DNA of 61,323 nt, filler included, from 7 parts of 7 records of this genome joined end to end with filler, not necessarily neighbours in it; one strand, 5' to 3'. Shown: positions 4,384 to 61,207, counted from the first letter of the whole stretch. A program made the numbers and translations. Notes: generated from the letters alone by a model not told the origin.

Positions 4384-6548
4384 CGATTAGCCAAAGCATC
4401 CTTCATCAACCGTGGCGTAATAAAGATCAGCAGCTCCTGCTTGTTATCACGATTCACGGTCTTCCTGAACAGGTTACCAATCCACGGCAAGTCACCCAGG
4501 AAAGGCGTCTTGGTCACGGAATTGATCTTCTCCTGCTGGAAGATACCACCAAGCACCACTGTCTCGCCATCATTGACCAGCACTGAAGTTTCTACCCGGT
4601 TAGTATTGATCGCCGCAGAACCGTCTGAACTGAAGGAATCATTGTTCACTTTCAGCGTCATGATGATATTGCCATCTGGCGTGATATGTGGGGTTACCTC
4701 AAGACGCAGCTCCGCTTCCACAAAATCGATGGACGTAGCGCCCGAGGACGTGGCCACCTCAAAAGGCACCTGCTGACCGGATGCGATCACCGCAGGCTGC
4801 TGATCCGCTGTTAACACCTTGGGAGTAGCCACCAGCTCACCATGACCTTCCGCTTCCAGAGCGGAAAGCTCAAGCTCGATCAGGCCAGAGGCGAGAGAGG
4901 TAAAGCCGACAGCAAACCGGGATGCATTGGCAGAATCCACACCCAAGTCGACGATCAGATCGTCATCGTTCTCGATATCTTCAAATTCATAATCATCAGG
5001 GCCGAAATCCACATCATCAGGATCAATAGCCGGGCTGGCCGCAAAGGCTGTTCCGTCAATATTAGTCTGGTGCAAATTACGCAGAGACTGCAAACGGCCC
5101 GACACACCATAGGTACGACCATCCTGAAGCATACTCTCGGTGTCAAAACCCAAACCACCCCAACGCACACCGAATTCATCCGTTACGTCATTGGTTGCCA
5201 CCACAACGCGGGCCTCGATAAGTACCTGCTGAACAGGAACATCCAGCTGGTCAATCAGCTCACGAATCTCCTCCAGCTTTGCCTGGGTATCCTGCACAAT
5301 CAGCGTATTGGTGCGCTGATCGACAACAACAGAGCCACGACTGGAAACCAGCGCCTCGCCTTTACCCCCAGCGTTGGCAATCAACCCTTTCAGCTCCGAG
5401 GCGTTGGCATAATTGATATTGATATATTGGGTACGCAAGGGCGCCAATGCTTCAATTTTCTTCTGGCTTTCCAGCTCCAACTGCTCACGGGCCGCAATCT
5501 CATCTGCGGGCGCGACGAGCAAGACGTTACCCACCTGACGCTTATCCAGCCCCTTGGTTTTCAGAATCAATTCCAGCGCCTGATCCCAAGGCACATTCTG
5601 CAAACGCAGAGTGATGCGCCCATCAACCGTATCAGAGGCCACCAGGTTCAAGCCGGTAAAGTCGGCGATCAGCTGAAGCACCGAACGCACTTCAATATCC
5701 TGGAAATTCAGGGACAACTTTTCGCCAGTGTATTCAAACGCGTCTTTTTTCTTTCGTGCCGCTTCCGCCTTGCTCACCGGCTTAACATTAATACTGAACT
5801 CGTTATCCGCTTGGTATGCCAGATACTCCCACACCCCGGTCGGCTCAATAACCACCATGGTGCTACCCTCGGCTGACTGGGTCTCCACCATCTTGACCGG
5901 CGTCGCAAAATCGGTCACATCCAGTTTCCGCACCAGCTCATTGGGCACACCAGCCCCGACAAACCGGGCCACAATCTTGCCGCCCTCTTCCTTCACATCG
6001 ACCGGAATTGAGGGCTCAGACAGCTTGATAATCACACGACCTTCGCCGCTATCACCACGCCGAAAATCCACACCGGTTACAGCCGCTTCGCCACTGTAAT
6101 CGTCACCTTGGGTGGCCTGATTCTGCTTATCCACCTGATCATTACCCAGGAGAACAACCAGATCATCCCCTTCGGCACGAGTAGAATACCCGGTCAGCGA
6201 TTCCAGATTAAAAATTAGTCGTGTTCGGTCTTTTGCTTCAACGATAGTCACGCTGCGGGCATTACCCGAACCGAGATTTTGCCGCTTGCCTGCGATATCC
6301 GTATCGGCGCCAACAAGATCCAGAGCAATTCGGGCAGGCTGCTCAATACTGTACCCCTTTACTTCCGGCACCCCCCCTTCAAACTTCAAGCGCACTTCCA
6401 TGCCATCACCGGACAGGGAGTTCGCTTCGATCGACTTCAGCGTATCTGCGCCCGCAACCATAGAGAGAACCGACAGCACCCCTACAGAAAACAGCCCCGC
6501 CAGACGCCGGGAAGCGCTCTTTTTTATTGTCAATTTTGCACATTTCAT
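4380..6548 (-). CDS. pilQ: Type IV pilus secretin
   Basis: AMIN-like N-terminal domains, YTGEKLSLNFQDIEVRSVLQLIADF, secretin C-terminus PFLGDLPWIGNLFR...ELLIFITPR. Confidence 0.97.
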   Translation of the reverse strand: MKCAKLTIKKSASRRLAGLFSVGVLSVLSMVAGADTLKSIEANSLSGDGMEVRLKFEGGVPEVKGYSIEQPARIALDLVGADTDIAGKRQNLGSGNARSVTIVEAKDRTRLIFNLESLTGYSTRAEGDDLVVLLGNDQVDKQNQATQGDDYSGEAAVTGVDFRRGDSGEGRVIIKLSEPSIPVDVKEEGGKIVARFVGAGVPNELVRKLDVTDFATPVKMVETQSAEGSTMVVIEPTGVWEYLAYQADNEFSINVKPVSKAEAARKKKDAFEYTGEKLSLNFQDIEVRSVLQLIADFTGLNLVASDTVDGRITLRLQNVPWDQALELILKTKGLDKRQVGNVLLVAPADEIAAREQLELESQKKIEALAPLRTQYININYANASELKGLIANAGGKGEALVSSRGSVVVDQRTNTLIVQDTQAKLEEIRELIDQLDVPVQQVLIEARVVVATNDVTDEFGVRWGGLGFDTESMLQDGRTYGVSGRLQSLRNLHQTNIDGTAFAASPAIDPDDVDFGPDDYEFEDIENDDDLIVDLGVDSANASRFAVGFTSLASGLIELELSALEAEGHGELVATPKVLTADQQPAVIASGQQVPFEVATSSGATSIDFVEAELRLEVTPHITPDGNIIMTLKVNNDSFSSDGSAAINTNRVETSVLVNDGETVVLGGIFQQEKINSVTKTPFLGDLPWIGNLFRKTVNRDNKQELLIFITPRLMKDALANR

Positions 6549-6568
6549 AACTGGGTCCCCAGCGACTA

Positions 6569-7096
6569 TTATTCGGAAATCGAGACGTTACTGGCGCGTT
6601 CCACCCAGCCATCTCGACCATCCGGTACGATTTCAATCAAACTTACCTTGGCTTCGTTAACCTGCTTGACCAAGCCAAAATTCTTCCCCATATGACTACC
6701 CGGCTTGACCCGAGTAACAGCCCCCGAAGGGTCAGCAACAAGCGCCTGGAGCGGCTCGCCAGGCTTACTAATGGTCCCAACCATTTTCAGCGTATCCAGC
6801 GAGAATCGCTCCAGGTATTCTTTCGGGCGCCCCATATCCGGCTCTACCTTTCGGCCATCTGGCACGACCAGCAGCTCCTGATCCTGCGGCGGACTGAATG
6901 GAGAGCGAAGCTTGTGGGCCGCATATGAATAAGAAGCGATAGGCTTGAATTCAGGTGGTGGCTCAATCCGCCCCCGAGGCCTTGCCTTGATTTCCTGGAG
7001 TCGCGCATCCAGTTCTGACAAATTTGCACTGGAACCGCACCCGGCAAGACCGAACAAGGCGACGCAAGCAACAGAAAGAAAGACTAATTTTTTCAT
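6569..7096 (-). CDS. pilP: Type IV pilus assembly lipoprotein
   Basis: Lipobox LAGC, LRSPF, KEYLERFSLDTLKMVGT, GWVER; operon position. Confidence 0.95.
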   Translation of the reverse strand: MKKLVFLSVACVALFGLAGCGSSANLSELDARLQEIKARPRGRIEPPPEFKPIASYSYAAHKLRSPFSPPQDQELLVVPDGRKVEPDMGRPKEYLERFSLDTLKMVGTISKPGEPLQALVADPSGAVTRVKPGSHMGKNFGLVKQVNEAKVSLIEIVPDGRDGWVERASNVSISE

Positions 7097-7110
7097 TATC
7101 CCACGCCCCC

Positions 7111-7784
7111 TTATTTATTCTTGCCAGAAGAATTCGCGCCGCCCGCAGCGCCATCCTTACTCGAATAGCGGTAGGTCTTGGCCGTAATGTCCATTCTCAG
7201 CAGCCCCAGAGCAGCCAACTCTTTATTACTATCCGATGGCCGCGTCACAGTAAAATCATGCAGCGTCACAATACGCGGCAGCGACGCCACACCGGACACA
7301 AACGAACCGAAACCATGGTAATCACCGATCACCTGAATATTGATTGGGAGTTCTGCGTAAAACTCCTTTTCAATTTCATTTCTCAGCTCAATGTTTTCAA
7401 ATTCCAACCCACTGCCCAACCCCGTATGGGTGATATCCTCAAGCAAGCCGGGCACCTCGGTATCCTTGGGCAGCTGCTTGAGCAGGGCCCCAAAGGTCTG
7501 CTCCATTTCCGCCAACTGCTTACGAAACTGATCAAGGTTATGGGCTTCAAACGCTTTCTTTTCATACCCTTGCAGCAAGGTCGCTTCTTCTCTTCTTTGC
7601 TGCTCAAGCGTCTGATTGGCATCACTGATCGACAGGAAATAACCAAGAACGACAACAATAACCAGTACAAGAATGGCCGCCCCAATCTTTATTGGCGTAG
7701 GCCAGCCTCCCACATTCTCAAAATCCAGGCTGTTGAGTTCATCCATCAACTCGCCCAGATCCAAATTTTTCAGCTCAGAGGCTT

Positions 7785-7788
<4 letters not shown>
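7111..7788 (-). CDS. pilO: Type IV pilus assembly protein
   Basis: LLKQLPKDTEVPGLLEDI, FYAELPI, LPRIVTLHDF, AKTYRY. Confidence 0.96.
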
Positions 7789-9436
<1,648 letters not shown>

Positions 9437-9617: not shown

Positions 9618-12191
9618 ATGCGTTTACCCTCCTGGATCCGATACCTGCTGTTACTCCTTATTGCCGGCGCCGGTGGCAGCCTGACAGCCCTCGCCGCCAG
9701 CTACCTCTATCTGGCTCCCCAGCTGCCCCCGGCAAGCCAGATTCGCGAGGTGGAATACCAGATCCCCCTGCGCATCTATAGTCGCGATATGAAGCTGATC
9801 GCAGAATACGGGGAAAAACGCCGCCAGCCAGTGACTTACGACGAACTGCCGCAACCATTGATCCAGGCGGTACTGGCCGCGGAAGACGAGCGCTTCTTCC
9901 GCCACAACGGCGTGGACCTGAAAGGCCTACTGCGTGCCTTTGTGGAATTGGCCCGCTACCGGGAGATTCGCTCCGGGGGCTCCACCATCACCATGCAGGT
10001 GGCCCGCAACTTCTTTCTGGACCGGGAACAGCGCTTTCTGCGCAAATTCAACGAAATCGTGCTCGCCATCCAGATTGAACGGGTCCTCAGCAAGGAAGAA
10101 ATCCTTGAGCTTTATCTAAACAAGATCTATCTGGGGCACCGGGCCTACGGCGCCGAAGCCGCCTCCCAAGTGTATTATGGCAAGTCTGTGGGCGAACTTA
10201 CCCTGCCCCAATGGGCCATGATTGCCGGGCTACCGAAAGCCCCTTCAGCCTATAACCCGATCACCAACCCCCAGCGCGCCCAGGTGCGACGCAACTGGAT
10301 CCTGCATCGCATGGAAGAGACCGGCGCCCTCACCGCCGAGCAGCGCGAGCTGGCCCAGGCTGCCCCGGTCAGCGCCCGCTTCCATGCCGCCTCACCGGAA
10401 GTGGACGCCGCCTATCTGGGCGAGATGGCCCGCCTGCAGGCCATGGAATTAGTGGACGCCAACATCTACACCGACGGCATCCGCATCATCACCACGGTAG
10501 ACAGCAAACGCCAGCAGGCTGCGGTCAACGCCCTGCGCAACGGCCTGCACAGTTATGACGAGCGCCACGGCTACCGGGGCCCGCTGGCACAGCTGGACAT
10601 CAGCGACGCCCCGGCCCTGCCCTCACCCTCCGACGCGGACAGCGAAAAGCCCCCGGAAGACAGCACCGACAAGCCCGTCGTTGCCGAAGAGGCTGAACTG
10701 GAAAAGACCATCACCGGTCTTGACCCGGATGTCGCCGCCTGGGCAGAACGCATCAAGGACCAGCGCCGCATCGGCCCCCTGCAGCCGGCCATCGTTACCG
10801 CCGTAGGCGACAAGGATGCGGAAATCCTGTTCCGGGACGGCAAGCGCAGCCCGCTTGCCTGGAATGATATTCGCTGGGCGCGCCCCCAGCTCAACAACAA
10901 ATATGTCGGCAAAGAGCCCACCCGGGCCGGTGATGTCCTCAGTAAAGGGGACGTCATCTACGTCCGCCCCGCCGGCAGTGGCGACGAGCGTCACTGGCGC
11001 CTGGCCCAGCTCCCCAAGGCCCAGTCCGCCCTGATTTCACTGGACCCGTCCAATGGCGCCATTGTGGCGCTGCAAGGCGGCTACAGCTTCTCTACCTCCA
11101 ACTTCAACCGGGCCGTACAGAGCGAACGCCAGGCCGGCTCCGTGTTCAAGCCGTTCATCTACACCTCCGCCATGGAAAACGGTTTCACTCCGGCCTCCAT
11201 CATCAACGACGCCCCAGTGGTCTTTGATGACGACAAACTGGAAACCGCCTGGCGCCCCACCGGCGCCAGCGGCAAGTTTTATGGCCCCACCCGCATGCGC
11301 GAAGCCCTGTACCGCTCGCTGAACCTGGTCTCCATCCGCATCCTGCGTCAGATCGGCATCAGCCAGGCCATGGGCACCCTGAAACGCTTCGGCCTGCCGG
11401 CAGACACCTTCCAGCGCGATCTGTCCCTGGCCCTGGGTAGCGCCAGCGTGACCCCCATGGACATCGCCTCGGCCTACAGCATCTTTGCCAACGGCGGCTA
11501 TCGGGTAGCCCCCTGGAGCATTGTGCAGATTGAAAAGGATAACGGGGACGTGCTCTGGAAAGCTCCAGAGGTGATTTTCTGCGAAAGCCCCTGCCGGCCA
11601 CCGCAAACCGATAACGACACCCAAGACAACATGACCGAAGTCGACACTGTCGACACAGCCAATAGCGACAGCGATGACCGCACCACCCAGCCCCACCAAC
11701 CACCACCGGTCATGGCCCCGCGTGCAATCGACGCCCGCATTGCCTGGCTGATGAACTCCATACTGCAAGACGTGGTGCGCCGCGGCACCGGCCACCAGGC
11801 TAACCGCCTGGGCCGCCGGGACCTGGCCGGCAAAACCGGGACCACCAACGACCAGGTAGACGCCTGGTTCTCCGGCTACTCTCCGGACTTGGTCGCCACC
11901 GTCTGGGTCGGCTTCGACAATCCCGCTTCACTGGGCTGGGGTGAGTATGGCGGCAAGGCCGCCCTGCCCATCTGGATGGATTACATGGGGCCGGCACTGG
12001 AAGGCGTTCCCAACCGCCAGCTGGAACAACCCTCCGGCATCGCCACCGTGCGTATCGACCCGGACAGCGGCCTGCAGGCCCGGCCGGAGAACCCGGACTC
12101 CATTCGCGAGTACTTTATCCGCAGCCAGGTCCCCGATATGGAACCGGCGAGAGGGCCGGGCGGACACAGCGCACCGGAGCAAATATTTTAA
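9618..12191 (+). CDS. mrcA: Penicillin-binding protein 1A (class A PBP)
   Basis: Transglycosylase motifs EDERF, GGSTITMQ, LELYLN; transpeptidase SVFK, SLN, KTGTT; divergent from pilM as is typical. Confidence 0.96.
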   Translation: MRLPSWIRYLLLLLIAGAGGSLTALAASYLYLAPQLPPASQIREVEYQIPLRIYSRDMKLIAEYGEKRRQPVTYDELPQPLIQAVLAAEDERFFRHNGVDLKGLLRAFVELARYREIRSGGSTITMQVARNFFLDREQRFLRKFNEIVLAIQIERVLSKEEILELYLNKIYLGHRAYGAEAASQVYYGKSVGELTLPQWAMIAGLPKAPSAYNPITNPQRAQVRRNWILHRMEETGALTAEQRELAQAAPVSARFHAASPEVDAAYLGEMARLQAMELVDANIYTDGIRIITTVDSKRQQAAVNALRNGLHSYDERHGYRGPLAQLDISDAPALPSPSDADSEKPPEDSTDKPVVAEEAELEKTITGLDPDVAAWAERIKDQRRIGPLQPAIVTAVGDKDAEILFRDGKRSPLAWNDIRWARPQLNNKYVGKEPTRAGDVLSKGDVIYVRPAGSGDERHWRLAQLPKAQSALISLDPSNGAIVALQGGYSFSTSNFNRAVQSERQAGSVFKPFIYTSAMENGFTPASIINDAPVVFDDDKLETAWRPTGASGKFYGPTRMREALYRSLNLVSIRILRQIGISQAMGTLKRFGLPADTFQRDLSLALGSASVTPMDIASAYSIFANGGYRVAPWSIVQIEKDNGDVLWKAPEVIFCESPCRPPQTDNDTQDNMTEVDTVDTANSDSDDRTTQPHQPPPVMAPRAIDARIAWLMNSILQDVVRRGTGHQANRLGRRDLAGKTGTTNDQVDAWFSGYSPDLVATVWVGFDNPASLGWGEYGGKAALPIWMDYMGPALEGVPNRQLEQPSGIATVRIDPDSGLQARPENPDSIREYFIRSQVPDMEPARGPGGHSAPEQIF

Positions 12192-13324: not shown

Positions 13325-13424
13325 NNNNNNNNNNNNNNNNNNNNNNNNNNNNNNNNNNNNNNNNNNNNTTAATTAATTAANNNNNNNNNNNNNNNNNNNN
13401 NNNNNNNNNNNNNNNNNNNNNNNN
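13325..13424. other. Artificial contig spacer (same 100-nt spacer at 24854-24953, 33588-33687, 39501-39600, 46931-47030, 52566-52665)
   Basis: N-run + TTAATTAATTAA (stops in all six frames) + N-run; genes are truncated at junctions and composition changes. Confidence 0.98.
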
Positions 13425-24799: not shown

Positions 24800-25067
24800 G
24801 GCGCGATCAGGTGGCTTTTTAAACGTTGGAGTTTTGCGTGTAGCGACGGTTTANNNNNNNNNNNNNNNNNNNNNNNNNNNNNNNNNNNNNNNNNNNNTTA
24901 ATTAATTAANNNNNNNNNNNNNNNNNNNNNNNNNNNNNNNNNNNNNNNNNNNNCTTCATCTTGCCAGATAAACTCCGGGGACGGCGCGCCAGCGCCGGGG
25001 GCAGAGCCCCAAAGGCAACGTCGCGTCCTGCTTGACGCAAAGGGCCTGCACACCCCACGCTTGCCCC

Positions 25068-33587: not shown

Positions 33588-33687
33588 NNNNNNNNNNNNN
33601 NNNNNNNNNNNNNNNNNNNNNNNNNNNNNNNTTAATTAATTAANNNNNNNNNNNNNNNNNNNNNNNNNNNNNNNNNNNNNNNNNNNN

Positions 33688-39500: not shown

Positions 39501-39600
39501 NNNNNNNNNNNNNNNNNNNNNNNNNNNNNNNNNNNNNNNNNNNNTTAATTAATTAANNNNNNNNNNNNNNNNNNNNNNNNNNNNNNNNNNNNNNNNNNNN

Positions 39601-46649: not shown

Positions 46650-47030
46650 TTCGGCTCCTGCTCGGGGTCGCGCGCACGTTGGTTTGTTTGTCGGGTGGGG
46701 TCAAGCCGCGCGGCGGCTGTTGGCCGCAACGGTCACATAGTTCCGCCTGCGGAGACGGGCAATGTTGTTTGTGAATGGTGCGCGGAATTGCGGTCTTGGG
46801 TTTGGTGTTTTGGGGAAGCGGTGTGTGTGTGGAGTTCCCGGATGCGGTCGTTTGGGTGGGGCGAAGCGAATGGTCGATCTGAGGTCAGAGTGACATCACT
46901 ACAGAGGGCAGCGCCTGACCGCGGGTGGGCNNNNNNNNNNNNNNNNNNNNNNNNNNNNNNNNNNNNNNNNNNNNTTAATTAATTAANNNNNNNNNNNNNN
47001 NNNNNNNNNNNNNNNNNNNNNNNNNNNNNN

Positions 47031-52565: not shown

Positions 52566-52666
52566 NNNNNNNNNNNNNNNNNNNNNNNNNNNNNNNNNNN
52601 NNNNNNNNNTTAATTAATTAANNNNNNNNNNNNNNNNNNNNNNNNNNNNNNNNNNNNNNNNNNNNC

Positions 52667-52750
52667 ATTATCGAGGCGTCCTATAACGCGCTTCGGGATT
52701 CGATCACCTATAAACTGTTCAAATCCGGCGTACGCAGCCAGCATGCGTGA
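52667..52750 (+). CDS. cimA: C-terminal fragment, probably citramalate synthase
   Basis: IIEASYNALRDSITYKLFKSGVRSQHA* resembles the CimA regulatory-domain end; only 27 codons visible. Confidence 0.6.
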   Translation: MIEASYNALRDSITYKLFKSGVRSQHA

Positions 52751-52774: not shown

Positions 52775-52804
52775 CAAAGGGCGCGTTTTGATCCGCGCCC
52801 TTTG
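52775..52804. terminator. Bidirectional hairpin terminator closing the guanidine operon
   Basis: CAAAGGGCGCG-ttttgatc-CGCGCCCTTTG between convergent genes, 4 nt from the His-rich gene stop. Confidence 0.8.
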
Positions 52805-52808
52805 ACGT

Positions 52809-53315
52809 TTAGATTTGATGGTGATGCGGGTGGTCATGACTTTGATCGTGATGATCGTGTCCATGTTTGTGCCCATGCCCAAAGCGTGCGGCCATGAAGC
52901 TTAGCAGGTCGATATCGGCCCGTTCGGTCATCGACACATAGGTGAATGTCATGGTTTCGCGTTCCTCGATCATGCTGCCGGGGAACGGCAGATAAGCCAG
53001 TTCGCGGGTAGCAAAGGCCGGGCAGGCGGTGCCGATTTGCCAGTTGGTTGTGATTTTGGCATCGACCAGATGCATGGTCAGGCCATCCTTGCCGATCTTT
53101 TGAAACGGGATATCGGCAAGGCGAAGGTAGCTTGCCTTGTCATCGGCTTTGCGGAAGCCTTCGACGAAGCTTGAGGACAGGACCTGTAATTCCTCGGCAT
53201 GGTCGGCGTCGCTTTGGCCGTGGACATGGGAATGCAGGTGATCGTGGTCCGGGGCGTGATTATGCCCCGGTCCGTGAGAATGGTTGTGGCCGTTATCGTG
53301 ATGATCATGGGGCAT
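52809..53315 (-). CDS. His-rich protein of unrecognised family (168 aa); candidate nickel-binding accessory protein
   Basis: ATG 53315 with GGAG RBS overlapping the hydrolase end; 14 His in the first 39 aa and 11 His in the last 23 aa around a roughly 105-aa globular core. Confidence 0.85.
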   Translation of the reverse strand: MPHDHHDNGHNHSHGPGHNHAPDHDHLHSHVHGQSDADHAEELQVLSSSFVEGFRKADDKASYLRLADIPFQKIGKDGLTMHLVDAKITTNWQIGTACPAFATRELAYLPFPGSMIEERETMTFTYVSMTERADIDLLSFMAARFGHGHKHGHDHHDQSHDHPHHHQI

Positions 53316-53319
53316 CTGG

Positions 53320-54558
53320 TTACTCCACATCCGGGCCGGCGGGGATGGTGACCGGTTTGTCGATGATGCCGCGATGCGATCCCATTTTGCCATGTGACAC
53401 CAGTGTACCCAGCACATCGACAATCACGCGCGTTGCCAGCAGGGCGGTAATGTCCGAGCAATCATAGGGCGGCGAAACTTCAACGACTTCAAGGCCGCAA
53501 ATTCCCTCTGCCGCGACAAGCGATACAAGCTCCAATGCCTCGCGCGGCAGGAAACCGCCAGGTTCGGGCCAACCGGTACCCGGAACGAACCCGCAATCGA
53601 CACTGTCGATATCAAACGAGATATAGACCGCATCTGCATCCTTCCATGCCAGTTCAAGCGCGCGCGCGGCGGTTTCGGCAAGGCCAAGTTCCTCGACATC
53701 GCGCATGGTGAAGATGTTGGTATTGCGATTGCGTGCAACTTCGACCCCTTCGCGCGGCACCTGCCAGCCGCCAATGCCGACCTGCACAAGGTTCACCGCC
53801 GGAACATTGACCAGATCGGTGGCATGGAACCACGGCGTGGTGTGCATGCGTTCATCAAGGTCTTTTTCCTGAATGTCGATATGGCGGTCGAAATGCACGA
53901 TGCCGATACGTTTGGATGTGCATTGCGCAATGCCACGCACGCACGGGAAACCGATGGAATGATCGCCGCCGATCATGATCGGCAGTGCGCCACTGGATGC
54001 AACGTGGCTGACCGCGCGCGTAATCTGATCAAAGGTTTTTTCGATATTGGCCGGGATGGTGAAAACATCACCTACATCGCAAAGCGTCATCTGTTCGCGA
54101 AGATCGACCCCCATTTCATAGTTATAGGGCGTGTAAAGGGCGGATATCTTGCGAACCCCCTGCGGGCCGAAACGCGTGCCGGGGCGGTATGTCGTGCCGC
54201 CATCAAACGGGATGCCTATAACCGCCGCGTCATAGGCACCGACCTTGGTGACGTCTTCGATATAGGGTGCCTTCAGAAACGTGTTGATCCCGGCATAATG
54301 GGGCAGTTCGCCCCGGGCAAAGGTCGGGATCGATTTATCGGTCAGGCAATCCGAGCCGGTCAAACCCATGCGAAGCGCCCACTGCTTTTCCTTTTCCCAA
54401 GCGGCAGATGGCAGCAAGGCTTCTTTTTCCGCCGATTTCCAACCACGCAATTGCAGCTTGTCGAAATTCGGGTGGTGGTGACGGGTTGCGGCGGGGGAGG
54501 GCAATGTTCCGGCCACGCGATGTCGGCGGACATTTTGGGGGGCAAAGAAATCGCGCAT
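53320..54558 (-). CDS. gdmH: Ureohydrolase-family guanidine hydrolase (GdmH type)
   Basis: Ureohydrolase ligands GGDHS, HFDRHID, SFDIDSVD plus GdmH-clade segments IPTFARGELPHYAGINTF, TTYRPGTRFGPQG, DLDERMHT, GIGGWQVPR, PGTGWPEPGG; guanidine riboswitch upstream. Confidence 0.88.
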   Translation of the reverse strand: MRDFFAPQNVRRHRVAGTLPSPAATRHHHPNFDKLQLRGWKSAEKEALLPSAAWEKEKQWALRMGLTGSDCLTDKSIPTFARGELPHYAGINTFLKAPYIEDVTKVGAYDAAVIGIPFDGGTTYRPGTRFGPQGVRKISALYTPYNYEMGVDLREQMTLCDVGDVFTIPANIEKTFDQITRAVSHVASSGALPIMIGGDHSIGFPCVRGIAQCTSKRIGIVHFDRHIDIQEKDLDERMHTTPWFHATDLVNVPAVNLVQVGIGGWQVPREGVEVARNRNTNIFTMRDVEELGLAETAARALELAWKDADAVYISFDIDSVDCGFVPGTGWPEPGGFLPREALELVSLVAAEGICGLEVVEVSPPYDCSDITALLATRVIVDVLGTLVSHGKMGSHRGIIDKPVTIPAGPDVE

Positions 54559-54613
54559 AGTTGTTTCCTTCGGGTTGCGTCAGTCTTTGTTGGGGTGGCT
54601 TTCGGGTTTGAAA

Positions 54614-55435
54614 TCAGGGAACCGGCGCGGTCGCCATCAGGGCGGCCGAGAAATTCATGCCGTCGGTTTCATCGGTTTCGCCATTGGCACCGGGAAGCGG
54701 TGCGGCAGACAGGTCAATCGGCAGGTCGTATGTGATGGTCGCGCCATAGGCTTCTGGCGCGTGCGGATCATCGCGCAACTTGTCAAATACCAGCATCCGG
54801 GTGCCGAGTTTGAAGGCCTCGTGGATGTCGTGCGTGACCATGAAGATCGTCATGTCATGCGCCTTCCACAGGTCCAGCAGCAATTCATGCATGTCATTGC
54901 GAATACCCGGATCAAGCGCGCCAAATGGCTCGTCCAGCAGCAGCACGCTGGGTTTCATTGTCAGGGCCTGAGCAATGGCAAGGCGTTGCTGCATGCCGCC
55001 CGAAAGCTGACTTGGATATTTGTTGGCCGCTGGTGACAGGCCGATGGTTTCAAGTAGTTCGGCAACATCATCGCGGGCCTTCTTGCGCGCGCGACCAAAC
55101 AGGCGCCCGGTCAGTTTGCGGGCGGCAAATTCCGCGCCGATCATGAGGTTTTCAGCAACGGTCAGATGCGGAAAAACCGAATAGCGTTGAAAGACAATGC
55201 CGCGATCAGGGGTGGGTTGTTGCGGCAGTGGTGCGCCATCCATCAGGATATCGCCGCTGCTTGGCAGCTCCTGGGACAGCAGCATGCGTAAAAAGGTCGA
55301 TTTGCCACAGCCCGATGCCCCGACCAGCGTGCAAAAAGCCCCGGCTTCGATATCCAGATTGATGCGTTCAAGCACCGGATATTCGCCGTAAGACTTGGTC
55401 AGGTTGCGGATCATGAATTTCGGGTCGCGCATCAC
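54614..55435 (-). CDS. ABC transporter ATPase (NitT/TauB-like), putative guanidine import
   Basis: GASGCGKST, VFQRYSVFPHLTV, LSGGMQQR, LLDEPFGALD, VTHD; GTGA overlap with the permease. Confidence 0.93.
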   Translation of the reverse strand: MMRDPKFMIRNLTKSYGEYPVLERINLDIEAGAFCTLVGASGCGKSTFLRMLLSQELPSSGDILMDGAPLPQQPTPDRGIVFQRYSVFPHLTVAENLMIGAEFAARKLTGRLFGRARKKARDDVAELLETIGLSPAANKYPSQLSGGMQQRLAIAQALTMKPSVLLLDEPFGALDPGIRNDMHELLLDLWKAHDMTIFMVTHDIHEAFKLGTRMLVFDKLRDDPHAPEAYGATITYDLPIDLSAAPLPGANGETDETDGMNFSAALMATAPVP

Positions 55436-56253
55436 AGGCTATCCCCCGAAAGGTGGTTCCAAGGGAAAGCCTTGCGCGATGCCATCAACAGCAACCGGTC
55501 AAGAATAAAGGCCAGAAGCGTGATCCAAGCGACATAAGGCAGGATCACATCCATCGCGAGGTAACGACGCACCAGAAAGATGCGATAGCCAAGGCCGCTG
55601 GTTGATGCGATGGCCTCGGCGGAAATCAGGAAAATCCATGCCGGGACAAGGCCAAGCCGGATGGCAGTGATCAGTTTTGGCATGACTTGCGGCAAAACCA
55701 CACGCGTGATCATTTGCCAGGTCGAGGCGCCCAGCGTTTCAGCCTTGATGATCAGTTCGCGCGGGATATCCATCACCGCCTGCGCGATTGTCCTGATCAT
55801 GACCGGGGCGGTGCCAATCGCGATCAGCATTACCTTGGAAGTCTCGCCCAATCCGAAAATGATGAACAGGATCGGCAGGATGGTGATTGGAGGGATCAGG
55901 GACAGGGTGGCGACAAAGGGTGCCAGACCGCGCCTGATATGCGGAATGAAGCCGATGGAAATGCCAAGCCCGATGGCAAGCAGGGTGGAAATGAAAATGC
56001 CGACCGCAAGGCGCGACAGGCTATCGATCGTATCAAGCCACAGAAGGTAATCGCCCGACCGTTTGTCGGCCTCGAACCCCATGCGCCAGATCGCATCCCC
56101 CATACTGCCAAGCGACGGCAAAAGCTTGTCGGCCGGATTATCGATCCGGCGCAGATGGCTTGCGATGGCATAGGCCCCGATCAAAAGCGCAAACGGGATC
56201 GAGCCCAGCAATATGGCTGCACGCCGGGAAAGGGTGCGATTGATGATACGCAT
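55432..56253 (-). CDS. ABC transporter permease, putative guanidine import
   Basis: Multiple TM helices, EAA-like KAETLGAS, FLISAEAIAS, GLGYRIFLVRRYLAMD; AAGGTG RBS before ATG 56253. Confidence 0.92.
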   Translation of the reverse strand: MRIINRTLSRRAAILLGSIPFALLIGAYAIASHLRRIDNPADKLLPSLGSMGDAIWRMGFEADKRSGDYLLWLDTIDSLSRLAVGIFISTLLAIGLGISIGFIPHIRRGLAPFVATLSLIPPITILPILFIIFGLGETSKVMLIAIGTAPVMIRTIAQAVMDIPRELIIKAETLGASTWQMITRVVLPQVMPKLITAIRLGLVPAWIFLISAEAIASTSGLGYRIFLVRRYLAMDVILPYVAWITLLAFILDRLLLMASRKAFPWNHLSGDSL

Positions 56254-56313
56254 GGCCGTCACCTTGCAATTGCAAAAACGGGGCAGTGGTCAAGACGGGC
56301 AAAAATCTGAAAG

Positions 56314-56373
56314 GTCGGCCATCCGAACCTGATGCAACTGGTGCAACGAATGTTACAAGGCCGGATGGCCGAC
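56314..56373. repeat. Intergenic inverted repeat after the SBP gene
   Basis: GTCGGCCATCCG (56314-56325) and CGGATGGCCGAC (56362-56373). Confidence 0.75.
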
Positions 56374-56418
56374 AGAGTTAATCAGCGAAGCGCTTGGTGG
56401 CGTGGCTAATACACGGTT

Positions 56419-57489
56419 TTAAAGCTCGCCCTTGGTGGCCATCTCCATATAGGTCGTGTCAAATTTCAGCTTCACATTGGTGCTATCGCCATAGATGCTG
56501 CCATCCGGGAAGCTGACGCCGACGAATTCCGGGCTTGGTGCGCCTTCACCAAGGATGCCCTTGTCGAACAGGAATTCGGCGACGAATTTCATGGTTTCGG
56601 AAAGCTCGGCCGATTTGGTGAATTCAACCGCCTTGTCCGGGGTAAAGAACATCGCCGTGCTGGCAAGCTGGGCATCGTATCCGGCAAGATCGGTGCCTGA
56701 TGCTTCGGCCATCGCGGTGCGTGCGGCAATGCCTTCGTCGGTGTCGGATGCCATGATGCCCATCAATTCATACCATGCGCCAACCAGTGCCTTGCCGAAT
56801 GCTGGATTGTCGGCAAGGGTTTCGGTGTTGACCATCATGATATCGATGATTTCGCCGGGGATACCCGCACTATCAAAGACGAGTGTCGCGTTATCGTTGG
56901 CGGCAATTTCCGACAGAAGCGGATTCCATGTCACGACCGATGTCACATCGTCAGTGGCATAGGTCGCGATCATGTCGGCGTCGGATGTATTCACGACCGT
57001 GACGTCCTGTTCGGACAGGCCGACCTTTTCAAGTGCACGCGCCAGCAGGTAATGGGAGACGGAAAGTTCAACCAGATTGACGTTTTGCCCCTTGATGGCG
57101 GCAAGGTCAGTTGCGTTTTTCAGGATGATGCCGTCATTGCCGTTGGAATAATCGCCAACAATCAGGGCGGTGGTATCAATCCCGCCACCGGCCGGGATCG
57201 AAAGCGCGTCCATATTGGTCATTGAGCAGCCGTCATATTCGCCAGCGGTGTATTGATTGATCGATTCAACGTAATCGTTGATCTGCACGATATCGACCGA
57301 GATGTCGTATTTGTCGGCCCATTTTTTCATGATGCCGCTATCCTGCAGATACCCCCACGGCATCCAGCCGACATAGATCGACCAGCAGACTTTGAAATCG
57401 GACTTTTGTTCGGCGTGGGCGGGTAGGGAAGCCAAAGAGGCAGAAAGGACGGCGGCAAACGAAAGTGTTTTGAAAAACGTCTTTAACAT
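56419..57489 (-). CDS. ABC substrate-binding protein, urea-carboxylase-region family (putative guanidine-binding)
   Basis: Signal peptide ending AHA; WSIYVGWMPW, INDYVESINQY, TNMDAL, GDYSNGNDG, ELSVSHYLL, IPGEIID; AGGAG RBS before ATG 57489. Confidence 0.9.
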   Translation of the reverse strand: MLKTFFKTLSFAAVLSASLASLPAHAEQKSDFKVCWSIYVGWMPWGYLQDSGIMKKWADKYDISVDIVQINDYVESINQYTAGEYDGCSMTNMDALSIPAGGGIDTTALIVGDYSNGNDGIILKNATDLAAIKGQNVNLVELSVSHYLLARALEKVGLSEQDVTVVNTSDADMIATYATDDVTSVVTWNPLLSEIAANDNATLVFDSAGIPGEIIDIMMVNTETLADNPAFGKALVGAWYELMGIMASDTDEGIAARTAMAEASGTDLAGYDAQLASTAMFFTPDKAVEFTKSAELSETMKFVAEFLFDKGILGEGAPSPEFVGVSFPDGSIYGDSTNVKLKFDTTYMEMATKGEL

Positions 57490-57596
57490 GTGTGCGCTCC
57501 TGCTTGTTTTGCGGATCACTTCGGATCAGTCAATTCAAGAAAGGCTCTTGCACACAAACCGGGAGAAGGCTTGTGCGCGACAAACCTGTGCAGTTG

Positions 57597-57699
57597 TCTC
57601 CCGGGATTTTGGCCCGCCGTGTCACCAGCCTGTGAAACTCTGGCTGGCTTGCGCCTCTTGGACCAGCATTCCTTTCGGAACCGGAACCCTAGGCGCGCT
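57597..57699 (-). ncRNA. Guanidine-I (ykkC-yxkD) riboswitch aptamer
   Basis: Minus strand GCGCCUAGGGUUCCGGUUCCGAAAGGAAUGCUGGUCCAAGAGGCGC-AAG-CCAGCC...GGCUGG-UGACACGGCGGGCCAAAAUCCCGGGAGA carries the CUAGGGUUCCG, GGUCC.AGAG and ACACGGCGGG..AAAA.CCCGGGAG hallmarks with intact P1/P2/P3. Confidence 0.92.
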
Positions 57700-57714
57700 G
57701 CACACTCAAACAGA

Positions 57715-57730
57715 AGCAATGCATATGCCA
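57715..57730 (-). promoter_or_regulatory. Sigma-54 (-24/-12) promoter for the guanidine operon
   Basis: Minus strand TGGCATATGCATTGCT = GG-N10-GC; predicted +1 near 57704, just 5' of the aptamer. Confidence 0.8.
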
Positions 57731-57841
57731 GTCACCTGAAATACGTCTTTGGATGTTGGTAATGCTATGGAAATAAAGGATAATACTGATGTTAGTGACG
57801 CTGCCTGTTGCGCGAAATGCATATATGCAGCCTGCAATTTT

Positions 57842-57887
57842 TGATTAAAAAATAACCATAAAAATAAATATGATCAAAAATAATGCA
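57842..57887. promoter_or_regulatory. Candidate tandem NtrC-like enhancer sites
   Basis: Minus strand TGCATTATTTTTGATCA (57871-57887) and TGGTTATTTTTTAATCA (57842-57858), 29 bp apart and 140-180 bp upstream of the predicted +1; resemble TGCACYNNNNNRGTGCA. Confidence 0.45.
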
Positions 57888-58001: not shown

Positions 58002-58793
58002 ATGAGCGACGTCGCAGACGCGGCTATGCCGGATGGCGCAAGACCCGAAACCGGCGGTATCGCCAATCCGCCTGTCATCATCCTGATCGAACCGCAGCTT
58101 GGCGATAATATCGGCAAGGCGGCGCGCGCCATGCTCAATTGCGGTTTGGTTGACTTGCGCCTTGTGCGGCCGCGTGATGGCTGGCCCAATGACAGGGCAA
58201 CCGCGAATGCGTCGGGGGCTGATATTGTCATCGACAATACCAAGGTGTTCGAGCGCGAAGAAGATGCGCTTGCGGATCTGAACCGGGTTTATGTGACGAC
58301 CGCGCGGACGCGCGACGCGATCAAGCCGGTTTTTACCCCAAAGGGACTGGCACCTGAAATGCGCGCCAATGTCGCGCAGGGGGAAAAGGTCGGCGTGATG
58401 TTCGGGCCGGAACGCACCGGTGTGCGCAACGAACATATTTCGATGGCCGATGCGGTCGTGACAGTGCCGCTGAACCCGGGCTTCACATCGCTTAACCTTG
58501 CGCAGGCTGTGCTGCTGATCGGGTATGAATGGTGGCAGGCCGGTGTCGATGTGCCCGATTACCAGATGATGATGAACGATACCTTCCCGGCAACCCGGGA
58601 CGAGTTGGATCGTTTGTTCGAACATCTCGAGGCGGAACTGGATAATTCCGGTTTCTTCCGGGTCGAGGCAAAACGCCCGAATATGGCACGCAATATCCGC
58701 AATATTTTCAACCGCGCCAACCTGACCCACCAGGAAGTTCAGACACTTCGCGGCATGATCGTCGCGATGCGGGGCGGTAAGCACAAGCCATAG
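58002..58793 (+). CDS. trmJ: TrmJ/LasT-family SPOUT tRNA methyltransferase
   Basis: PQLGDNIGKAARAMLNCGL, FGPERTG, SLNLAQAV, EVQTLRG. Confidence 0.9.
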   Translation: MSDVADAAMPDGARPETGGIANPPVIILIEPQLGDNIGKAARAMLNCGLVDLRLVRPRDGWPNDRATANASGADIVIDNTKVFEREEDALADLNRVYVTTARTRDAIKPVFTPKGLAPEMRANVAQGEKVGVMFGPERTGVRNEHISMADAVVTVPLNPGFTSLNLAQAVLLIGYEWWQAGVDVPDYQMMMNDTFPATRDELDRLFEHLEAELDNSGFFRVEAKRPNMARNIRNIFNRANLTHQEVQTLRGMIVAMRGGKHKP

Positions 58794-58858: not shown

Positions 58859-59107
58859 GGGGTGCTTTCAGTATTCAGCCGACAGCTTGGTGCTGCCCCG
58901 TGAGCCACGACCGGCTTTGTGTGAATTTTTTTAGACAAATGTAATAATGTAAGGCGATTTGTAATTGTAGTTACAAAATTATCCGTGACATCGCCTGTTT
59001 TCCCGACCTATCCTTGAGTCTGGGATTCATAACACAATCTTATAAGAGATGGGTCACCCGGACGGGGGTTCAGAGGTTTCTCAAATGTTTGAGCATTGGG
59101 GTGGGGT

Positions 59108-61207
59108 ATGAAGGGATTTCTAAATCTTTCGGTCAAGGTTCAGCTGCTGATTTCGATGGCGGCACTTGCGTTTTCTGCGGTTGCGGTGGTTTTGCTGGTT
59201 ACGCAATCTTCGTCATTTGATGCCATTCACAAGGTATCGGTCGAACAGGCGCGCGAACAGGCTTATCGATATGCCAATTCGGTTTCGGAGGAATTGAATA
59301 TTCCGGCGGAAGCCGTTCGTTCGACAGCCTCGGCGCTAAAAGGCATGGTTGCGGCAGGTAAGCCTGACCGCGAAGTTGCCGGTGAAATCATTTCCGAATT
59401 ACTGCGCCAGCATCCCGGAATTGTCGGCAGTGGAACGGTGTGGGAACCGAACGCCTTTGACGGTGCCGATAGCAGCAACGCCAATGTGGCAGGCAGCGAT
59501 GATGCCGGTCGGTTTGTGCCCTATTTCTATCGTGATGCATCGGGCAAGATCGCGTTTGAGCCGCTGATCGGGTTTGAAACGCCGGGGGATGGCGATTGGT
59601 GGTTGGTTCCCCGTGACGAACGACGTGAAACCATTGTCGAACCTTATGTCTATCCCGTGAACAATGTCGACGTGTTAATGACAACCATCAGTGCGCCGGT
59701 ATTTGAGGGGGAACCGGGCAGTAAGGTGATTGGCGGCGTAACCGTCGATCTGGCGCTTGAAACGCTGCAGGGCATTATCGACCAGATTGCCTTGCCCGAG
59801 AGTGGTATGGCTACCCTGATTTCAGAAGGGGGCTATGTTGTCGCACACAGTGCCAAGGATCGGGTTGGCCAGAATATCAGCGATATTGATCCGGCACTGG
59901 CACCGGTCCTGGAAAGTATTGGCAAAGGTGAGGCTTTTGGCCGTGAAATGAAGCTCGGTGCCGATAGTGCGTCTTACTATGTCACCTTTACACCGATATC
60001 GATTGGCAAAACGGGTACGAACTGGGCATTGGGTACGGCGATCCCGATGAAAGCTATTCTGGCAGAGGCAAATAACCAGCTTTATATCGCCCTCGTCGTG
60101 GCGGCTGTTGCGGTTCTTGCGGTTGCGATTATCGCTTTTTGGCTTGGCGGTGCGTTGGGGCGTCCGGTGTTGCGGATGACCGAACGGATGAATGCGCTGG
60201 CGCAGAATGATGTCGATGTCGAGATTCCCTATACCGACCGTTCGAACGAGTTTGGCCGCATGGCACAGGCCGTTGCGGTGTTTCGGGAAAATGCCGTGCG
60301 TGTTCGCAATGCCGAGGCCGAAAAACTTAAAGCCGATCATGTGGCCGAGGAAAGGCGCCGTACCCAGTTGAACCAGCTTGCAGACTCGTTTGAAAGTTCT
60401 GTTGGAGGAGTGGTCGGCTCGGTGAGCAATGCTGCGGATCGTCTGTCGTCGTCTTCCGGGGTCATGAACCAGATCGCTGTTGACACGCGATCACAGGCCG
60501 CAGCGGTGAATGCAGCAGCCGAAGAAGCATCCAATAATGTACAGACTGTGGCTTCCGCGACCGAGGAGCTGTCTGCGTCGATCCGTGAAATTTCGTCGCA
60601 GGTTGCGCAATCAAACGAGATTGCGGGCAATGCCGTAGAAGAAGCCAATAGAACAAACCAGTTGATCGGTGGTCTTGCCGATGCGGCGGAAAAGATCGGC
60701 GATGTTGTAACCTTGATTCAGGATATTGCGTCGCAGACAAATCTTCTGGCGCTGAATGCGACAATCGAGGCTGCGCGTGCCGGGGATGCCGGCAAGGGCT
60801 TTGCAGTTGTCGCAAATGAGGTCAAGAATCTTGCCAGTCAGACCGCGCGTGCAACAGACGATATTTCCGGTCAGATCGGCGGTATTCAGGGGGCAACCAG
60901 GGATGCGGTCGAGGCAATTGGCGGGATCACTGAAACCATCGGTCGCATCAGCGAAATCGCATCGACGATTGCGGCCGCTGTTGAACAGCAGGGGGCGGCG
61001 ACCGAAGAAATCGCGCGCAACGTCGGGCAGGCGGCACAGGGCACGACCGAGGTTACGTCAACGATCGGACAAGTGACGGCATCGACCGGCAAAGTTGGCG
61101 AATCTGCAAGTGATGTTGCAAGTGCTGCTGAGGAACTGACCGGGCAGGCTGCAAGCTTGCGTCAGCAGGTCGAGCAATTCCTGCGAGATATTCGGGCAGG
61201 CGTCTGA
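59108..61207 (+). CDS. Methyl-accepting chemotaxis protein with periplasmic dCache sensor and HAMP
   Basis: Two TM helices flanking a Cache region (WW...PR, EPYVY, GVTVDL), [44 protein letters not shown]. Confidence 0.95.

Follow-up and report, generated by a model that had tools for sequence, protein, structure and literature searches.

A histidine-rich protein family encoded next to guanidine hydrolase in alphaproteobacterial guanidine operons, a candidate nickel partner in place of GhaA/GhaB

Introduction

Guanidine is now accepted as a real nitrogen source, and guanidine hydrolase (GdmH), the enzyme that cleaves it, needs nickel. To our knowledge, the sole nickel-loading route described so far for this hydrolase is the one provided by the HypA/HypB-like proteins GhaA/GhaB. 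Here we analyse a guanidine-assimilation operon of Thalassospira type contained in a 61,323-nucleotide (nt) stretch of DNA (hereafter, the window). It comprises genes for a three-component importer, for GdmH and for a small histidine-rich (His-rich) protein. In the 80 closest loci, drawn from at least 560 genomes with GdmH relatives, this different, uncharacterised gene occupies the place of the maturase genes, and its product may supply nickel to the hydrolase.

Results

Layout of the guanidine operon

The operon sits at the end of a contig spanning 52666..61323 of the window, with all its elements on the minus strand from 57730 down to 52775. In the direction of transcription they are (ABC, ATP-binding cassette; E, expectation value):

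57715..57730, minus strand: sigma-54-type promoter TGGCATATGCATTGCT, TGGCAT-N5-TTGCT (-24/-12), the sole match in the window and conserved in related loci
57596..57703, minus strand: guanidine-I riboswitch aptamer, RF00442 (76.4 bits, gathering score 63, E 7.7e-12, model positions 1-107)
57551..57605, minus strand: probable expression platform, in which the aptamer 3' arm CCCGGGAG can pair with UUCUCCCGG, followed by UUUGUGUG
56419..57519, minus strand: gimA-like gene for a periplasmic guanidine-binding protein (TIGR03427, 543 bits, cut-off 333.9; Pfam NMT1 and NMT1_2)
55432..56262, minus strand: gimB-like gene for an ABC permease (BPD_transp_1, 77.4 bits; order kept in related loci)
54614..55435, minus strand: gimC-like gene for an ABC ATPase (ABC_tran, 115.6 bits; order kept in related loci)
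53320..54558, minus strand: gdmH, encoding an arginase-fold guanidine hydrolase, or guanidinase (537/526 bits to solved guanidinases)
52809..53315, minus strand: gene for the His-rich partner of 168 amino acids (aa), a candidate nickel chaperone or store for GdmH on the grounds of synteny and composition
52775..52804, minus strand: intrinsic terminator serving the convergent gene as well (11-pair stem with 8 G-C pairs, then CCATTTTATC)

Compared with proteins of solved structure, the hydrolase reaches 537 bits to 7esr/7oi1 and 526 bits to 9fek; according to passages of PMC11410670, 7OI1/7ESR represent the Synechocystis GdmH and 9FEK the guanidinase of Nitrospira inopinata. The next-best family is proclavaminate amidinohydrolase at 176.5 bits, while guanidinobutyrase, guanidinopropionase, metformin hydrolase and the agmatinases all score below that value. 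An assignment as agmatinase SpeB fails on both available models (169.1 bits for TIGR01230 against a cut-off of 174.3; 207 bits for NF002564 against 302). The enzyme is a GdmH-type guanidinase, nearer to the characterised guanidinases than to other ureohydrolases, with Ni(II) as its predicted metal and guanidine as its predicted specific substrate.

A TIGR03427-type binding protein, a permease and an ATPase form one unit with the guanidine enzyme, an arrangement that would define a GimABC-type importer. The true start of the gimA-like gene is likely the ATG at 57489, which stands behind AGGAG. In Synechocystis, GimA binds guanidine at ~97 nM and is required when guanidine is low, as stated in passages of PMC12704784.

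The completeness of the operon and the absence of HypA/HypB were judged in two genomes, those of Thalassospira sp. MCCC 1A03138 and T. australica, whose GdmH proteins are 99% identical to that of the window. Each encodes urease alpha (ureC) with a UreG-like gene beside it and has a single guanidine-I riboswitch, the one of the gdmH operon; no urea/guanidine carboxylase scores over the cut-off in either.

A first-pass annotation of this DNA, made from the sequence alone, had listed a promoter, a riboswitch, importer genes, a hydrolase, a His-rich gene and a terminator on the minus strand, and all of them were found there. Its view that a guanidine-I riboswitch and a sigma-54-type promoter govern guanidine import and GdmH-type hydrolysis is supported by the bit scores, the RF00442 match and the conservation of the promoter, and the covariance scan that it had proposed as a check gave 76.4 bits, over the gathering score of 63. 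The two closest genomes also bear out the stated lack of a guanidine carboxylase. Its implied placement in Thalassospira is right as well, to judge by the 99% identity of GdmH. As it had forecast, the hydrolase is labelled 'agmatinase family protein', and the binding protein appears in NCBIfam as 'putative urea ABC transporter substrate-binding protein'.

A conserved His-rich family tied to gdmH

With one genome taken per species, at least 560 proved to encode a GdmH relative, and the best 80 loci, nearly all from Alphaproteobacteria, were kept for comparison. In 79 of these 80, the His-rich gene comes immediately 3' of gdmH and in the same orientation, the single miss being a 2-kilobase (kb) contig cut inside gdmH. 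The order binding protein, permease, ATPase, gdmH, His-rich gene is the rule among them, and any further gene family is common to at most 12 of the 80 loci. The five-gene module moves as a unit. A sample of 401 evenly chosen Alphaproteobacteria contains the His-rich gene in nine genomes, exactly those with a GdmH of more than 770 bits, and in all nine it adjoins gdmH; seven other sampled genomes hold only distant GdmH-like proteins (~55% identity where aligned). The first-pass annotation had termed the gene product a 'His-rich orphan', a description that gives way to that of a conserved family tied to gdmH (79/80 loci; 9/401 genomes).

In the window, the His-rich gene begins 4 nt past the gdmH stop codon, behind GGAG, a spacing that suggests translational coupling to gdmH. 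The protein contains 26 His residues: residues 1-39 hold 14 of them, a 105-aa core holds one, and the C-terminal 24 residues hold 11. A similar composition characterises the family: across 79 members the 45 residues preceding the core have a median of 12 His and the core itself a median of 2, and 76 of the 79 have a flank with 4 or more His. The main clade has an invariant GHNH...HLHSHxHG motif, while divergent members have other His tracts, sometimes C-terminal. The core, with nearly invariant motifs, reaches a mean column identity of 59% over 58 sequences.

No sequence match of the protein was found in Pfam, NCBIfam or the PDB, and the ESM Atlas gave no usable match. Among 90% clusters, 532 relatives were retrieved at E <= 0.001, all of them unnamed or 'hypothetical', and those with an organism name belong to Alphaproteobacteria. 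When 1.84 billion proteins were searched with a profile of the core, 218 clusters (50% identity) matched, of which the 150 best are all short, at 54-343 aa. A structure model of the full-length protein had a predicted local distance difference test score (pLDDT) of 69.9, and an AlphaFold model of the core alone (58 sequences) reached a pLDDT of 91.3 with a predicted template modelling score of 0.76. The core model consists of two helices, a six-stranded sheet and a C-terminal helix. A prediction of the complex between GdmH and the His-rich protein scored 0.00; run without alignments or controls and with the partner fold uncertain, it is evidence neither way. No fusion of the two proteins was found: the 513- and 509-aa GdmH matches merely carry N-terminal extensions, and the 343-aa match arises where gdmH is read through, in garbled form, into the His-rich gene.

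Some variation within the family was seen at the level of individual loci. The N-terminal His tract (window 53200-53315; about 11240-11340 in loci L001 and L002) has in-frame indels among three Thalassospira strains, and the C-terminal tract is shorter in L001. In L027, from a metagenome-assembled genome (MAG), the His-rich gene (about 11214-11663) matches in two pieces in different frames, reflecting a frameshift or an assembly error. Loci L006, L009, L016, L017 and L027 (~6500-8200) have ~1.5-2 kb of extra DNA between the binding-protein and permease genes. The gene pair is also borne by L028, labelled an Anaerolineae MAG, through horizontal transfer or a binning error.

A link to nickel transport comes from rhizobia. 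In Sinorhizobium fredii NGR234 (pNGR234b; locus L100, 4114-6476), gdmH and the His-rich gene are followed by a gene for a HupE/UreJ permease (PF04955, 153 bits). In Supplementary file 4 of PMC8390497 (2021), four rhizobia are entered as 'Arginase, hypo, HupE/UreJ' and most cyanobacteria as 'Arginase, hypA, hypB'. A homologue of the His-rich protein is also encoded on four more Sinorhizobium megaplasmids.

The distant GdmH-like proteins have other surroundings. At five of their loci, in four genomes, neither the His-rich gene nor HypA/HypB was found among the scanned neighbours. In one alphaproteobacterial genome with two loci of this clade (L089 1002-2857 and L090 7909-9778), a HupE/UreJ-like gene lies directly downstream, and the neighbours are of LysR or EamA type, without a riboswitch-type transporter, a His-rich gene or HypA/HypB. 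This clade possibly represents another nickel ureohydrolase.

HypA, HypB and other nickel factors

HypA is encoded in neither of the two Thalassospira genomes, and no HypB scores over the cut-off in them. The absence of these factors, asserted in the first-pass annotation, is unreadable from a window of joined contigs and holds in the two genomes. The His-rich protein itself has no HypA (PF01155) or HypB (TIGR00073) domain and does not qualify as a GhaA or GhaB. Among the first 50 genomes carrying both genes, HypA is absent altogether from 28. HypB was found within 10 kb of gdmH in 0 of the 80 loci, where the G3E GTPases detected were two UreG and one MeaB. According to passages of PMC12704784 and PMC11399263, the known nickel ureohydrolases GdmH, MefH and DmgH need an adjacent HypA/HypB. 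The two ureG genes within 10 kb of a guanidine operon (L064 5722-6339 and L029 16321-17304) hint that guanidine and urea steps occasionally cluster.

Riboswitch, promoter and regulation

The RF00442 aptamer is the sole Rfam match above the gathering score across the whole window. With a covariance model built from 34 aptamers it was found upstream of the transporter in 72 of the 80 related loci; among the eight without a match, five are contigs cut short of that point, and the others are L025, L047 and L073. Folding of the full leader gave the aptamer plus an 11-base-pair (bp) hairpin instead of the alternative pairing, and a terminator-like alternative hairpin, with a U-rich run behind it, showed when the 5' part of the aptamer was omitted. 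In these models the element would act as an ON switch by anti-termination, through alternative pairing of the aptamer 3' arm.

The promoter immediately precedes the aptamer, at whose first bases the predicted start of transcription (57704) falls. It has the GG-N10-GC signature within the consensus TGGCAC-N5-TTGCW, and rpoN is present in both Thalassospira genomes. The pattern TGGCAYN5TTGCW matches once in the 61 kb, against a chance expectation of 0.18; since 17 of 100 shuffles also contained at least one match, the match in a single window is weak evidence, and the strength of the assignment comes from related loci. A sigma-54-type motif stands at the 5' end of the aptamer in 35 of the 72 aptamer loci (background, 0.007 per 57-nt window), 31-40 nt and mostly 38 nt from the aptamer core, within surroundings that are not conserved. 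The 37 aptamer loci without the motif are mostly of Rhodobacterales type, as labelled. No sigma-70-like site was found on the operon strand. With the promoter placed right next to the aptamer in 35 of 72 loci, control is probably dual, by the sigma-54 promoter and the riboswitch. A sigma-54 promoter fused straight to a riboswitch amounts to a compact two-input switch. A candidate site for the activator lies further upstream:

57818..57829, minus strand: 12-bp palindrome TGCATATATGCA, candidate activator (enhancer) site, centred ~118 nt upstream of the predicted start

The core of this palindrome, GCATATATGCATTT, is kept in both Thalassospira loci. Metatranscriptome libraries from two studies yielded contigs that span portions of each of the five genes and of the leader; such contigs cannot show start, strand or level, nor prove transcription, and the uncovered parts carry no meaning.

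Operon boundaries and make-up of the window

The window is composed of seven contigs with a G+C content of 0.53 to 0.63, which may come from more than one organism. They are joined by six N44-TTAATTAATTAA-N44 spacers, at 13325-13424, 24854-24953, 33588-33687, 39501-39600, 46931-47030 and 52566-52665. Adjacency across the spacers is artificial, so that the genes left of 52565 are not genomic neighbours of the operon. The features flanking the latter are:

52566..52665, no strand: artificial contig-join spacer N44-TTAATTAATTAA-N44, read from the sequence
52667..52750, plus strand: 3'-terminal 27 codons of a LeuA-like gene in convergent orientation, truncated at the end of the contig, a boundary outside the unit (from translation)
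58002..58793, plus strand: trmJ, divergent from the operon (domain and family matches)

In T. australica the full LeuA-like gene encodes 563 aa with HMGL-like and LeuA_dimer domains. It comes directly next in both Thalassospira genomes, so the operon ends at the His-rich gene, and the terminator hairpin is kept in both loci. The first-pass description of the unit as fully visible is thus right about its end at the His-rich gene, by way of the two genomes; the 'convergent gene fragment' that it took as a border reflects the end of a contig. Past trmJ, a gene for a dCache/HAMP methyl-accepting chemotaxis protein occupies window 59096-61207, a part in which T. australica seems different.

Discussion

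Comparison with known systems

The closest relative of the operon among described systems is that of Synechocystis sp. PCC 6803, gdmH-ghaA-ghaB plus gimABC (sll1077-sll1082), which likewise combines a guanidine-I riboswitch, GdmH (537 bits) and an ABC importer of the NitT/TauT type. Both have a second layer responsive to nitrogen status, NtcA in Synechocystis (passages of PMC12704784) and the sigma-54 promoter in the Thalassospira operon. They differ in gene order, which is reversed in Thalassospira with the transporter first and everything in one unit, and in the maturation genes: the operon has none for GhaA/GhaB, and the gene directly after gdmH encodes a His-rich protein unrelated to them. 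The comammox Nitrospira inopinata shares the guanidine-I riboswitch, a GdmH-type enzyme (526 bits) and the lack of a HypA/HypB-type chaperone nearby, but its locus has an APC permease where the Thalassospira operon has an ABC importer; in the same passages of PMC11410670, the authors call its nickel loading unclear and report no chaperone in the genome.

Operons for metformin/dimethylguanidine hydrolase (hypA-hypB-mefH-alpha/beta-hupE) are similar in pairing a nickel arginase-fold hydrolase with nickel supply genes, and their HupE recurs in S. fredii NGR234, there after the His-rich gene. They differ in their enzymes, which according to passages of PMC11399263 are heteromers that depend on the neighbouring HypA/HypB and take substituted guanidines as substrates. 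Against these hydrolases the GdmH of the window scores only 136 bits at best.

Known His-rich nickel chaperones and stores include the tails of UreE, the His-stretch HypB, SlyD, CooJ and Hpn. They resemble the present family in having long His-rich tails beside a folded domain and a gene beside that of the nickel enzyme served. The family differs from UreE, SlyD, CooJ and the like in that it has no Pfam or NCBIfam match, and fold searches did not rise above Z 3.9 or fall below E 0.12.

The operon layout itself is on record. Rows 'ABC_peri_uca, TM_PBP2, ABC, Arginase (hypo, HupE/UreJ)' in Supplementary file 4 of PMC8390497, covering Hoeflea, Mesorhizobium, Sinorhizobium, Sagittula, Loktanella and others, describe the same riboswitch-controlled arrangement. 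That table consists of domain hits only, the gene after Arginase being left blank or given as 'hypo' and undiscussed, and the searched passages of that paper mention just hypA and hypB. The layout of the 'distinct heterotroph variant' of the first-pass annotation is of this already tabulated type, and the point of interest of the operon is its fifth gene. We found no paper describing the His-rich gene, nor one with both 'guanidine hydrolase' and 'histidine-rich' (Funck et al. 2022 being outside the search), and the sole paper found to join ureohydrolase, nickel, metallochaperone and guanidine is on metformin hydrolase.

Proposed role of the His-rich protein

The reading we favour, and which we regard as moderately probable, is that of a self-contained five-gene module for scavenging guanidine nitrogen, in which the His-rich protein supplies nickel to GdmH and replaces GhaA/GhaB. 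Synteny, composition and the link to HupE suggest the nickel role. Transcription would proceed from the sigma-54 promoter under an activator, possibly an NtrC-like protein reporting nitrogen status, and RNA polymerase would read on past the guanidine-I riboswitch at the start of the transcript only with guanidine bound, expression thus needing both signals, activator and guanidine. The GimABC-like proteins would bring in guanidine, GdmH would convert it to urea and ammonium, and the urease of the genome would free the remaining nitrogen. The His-rich tails of the partner would gather Ni(II), its 105-aa core would dock on GdmH, and the protein would deliver or store nickel for the dinickel site, taking the place that HypA/HypB-like GhaA/GhaB have in cyanobacteria. 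The data show which genes are present, the riboswitch, the conservation of the promoter, the strict pairing with gdmH and the lack of HypA/HypB in close relatives; we infer that the partner binds nickel and docks on GdmH, which activator is involved, and that the riboswitch works by termination. The metallation route of its own that the first-pass annotation had postulated becomes much stronger with comparative genomics, if still conjectural. A bolder version, which we offer only tentatively, would make the His-rich partner the first of a new class of nickel insertase, a small protein that has a fold unseen among solved structures and loads the dinickel site of arginase-fold guanidinases without a GTPase of the HypB/UreG type.

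Several observations weigh against the proposed role. Nickel binding by the His-rich protein and its contact with GdmH are both conjectural, and 3 of the 79 family members have few His residues. Searches with the core model gave a best E of 0.27 in Foldseek and a best Z of 3.9 in VIA (48,161 chains); on these values the fold is unlike any known metallochaperone, although a weak or absent structural match does not rule out relatedness to known nickel chaperones. (Kinship with COMMD proteins, suggested by the best Foldseek rows for both models, is not claimed, at E 0.12-0.27 and a probability of only 0.14-0.20.) HypA is encoded in 22 of the 50 gene-pair genomes, in only one of them near gdmH (~11 kb away, on the other strand), and UreG and the three COG0523-like GTPases of Thalassospira could act in trans. 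The guanidinase of N. inopinata is active without a known chaperone, at low nickel occupancy (passages of PMC11410670), so a helper may not be essential. As for regulation, an enteric-type pattern for NtrC sites matches 4 of 36 promoter regions, the present one not being among them. Two RNA-library records of a related strain reach 57853, ~150 nt upstream of the predicted start, a misfit with a single sigma-54 start at 57704 unless this reach (57705-57853) is due to library DNA carry-over or a second promoter, as it may be.

Some of these observations would suit other explanations. Nickel insertion systems known so far pair a metal-binding adaptor with a GTPase, and the His-rich protein could likewise be a HypA-like adaptor still needing a GTPase encoded elsewhere (UreG or COG0523). 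Both Thalassospira genomes do encode UreG, beside ureC, and the three COG0523-like proteins, and ureG is within 10 kb of the operon in 2 of the 80 loci. We nevertheless judge this unlikely: the module is not accompanied by any GTPase gene, conservation across the 80 loci being confined to the genes of the operon, five in number, and the G3E genes of T. australica all lie more than 300 kb from gdmH. An Hpn-like protein that merely stores or buffers nickel, raising its supply or protecting the cell without docking on GdmH, would accord with His tracts that vary in length (in the three Thalassospira strains) and in position (N- or C-terminal), such variation being typical of low-specificity metal sponges. 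A sponge, however, would need neither the conserved 105-aa core (59% mean column identity over 58 sequences) nor strict adjacency to gdmH, which makes such a role improbable in our opinion.

The proposal that the fifth gene has nothing to do with metals, its product, for example, regulating or stabilising GdmH as a subunit or protecting against denaturation by guanidine, with incidental His tracts, could draw on the lack of similarity to any metal-handling family and on the median of only 2 His in the core. It has to contend with the retention of His-rich flanks in 76 of 79 members, whatever their position, with a nickel permease next to the gene in rhizobia, and with the fact that the gene fills the operon slot of cyanobacterial hypA/hypB; we find it very unlikely. 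Least of all do we expect that the hydrolase prefers another guanidino compound and that the operon is not mainly for free guanidine. Its substrate is, to be sure, predicted from sequence, and the distant GdmH-like proteins (~55% identity) occur in other contexts in some Alphaproteobacteria. Yet the enzyme scores 537/526 bits to guanidine-specific enzymes against at most 176 bits to other ureohydrolases, the operon is under a guanidine-I riboswitch, and the family of its binding protein binds guanidine at ~97 nM in Synechocystis (passages of PMC12704784).

Significance

Should the His-rich protein prove to be a maturase for GdmH, it would represent a new family in nickel trafficking and could simply be co-expressed in the engineering of guanidine or metformin-type hydrolases, and widespread annotations as 'agmatinase', 'urea ABC transporter' and 'hypothetical' would be corrected. 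As a GTPase-independent insertase, the version held only tentatively above, it would provide a minimal one-gene helper for expressing nickel ureohydrolases, and would account for the maturation of GdmH in hundreds of marine and soil Alphaproteobacteria.

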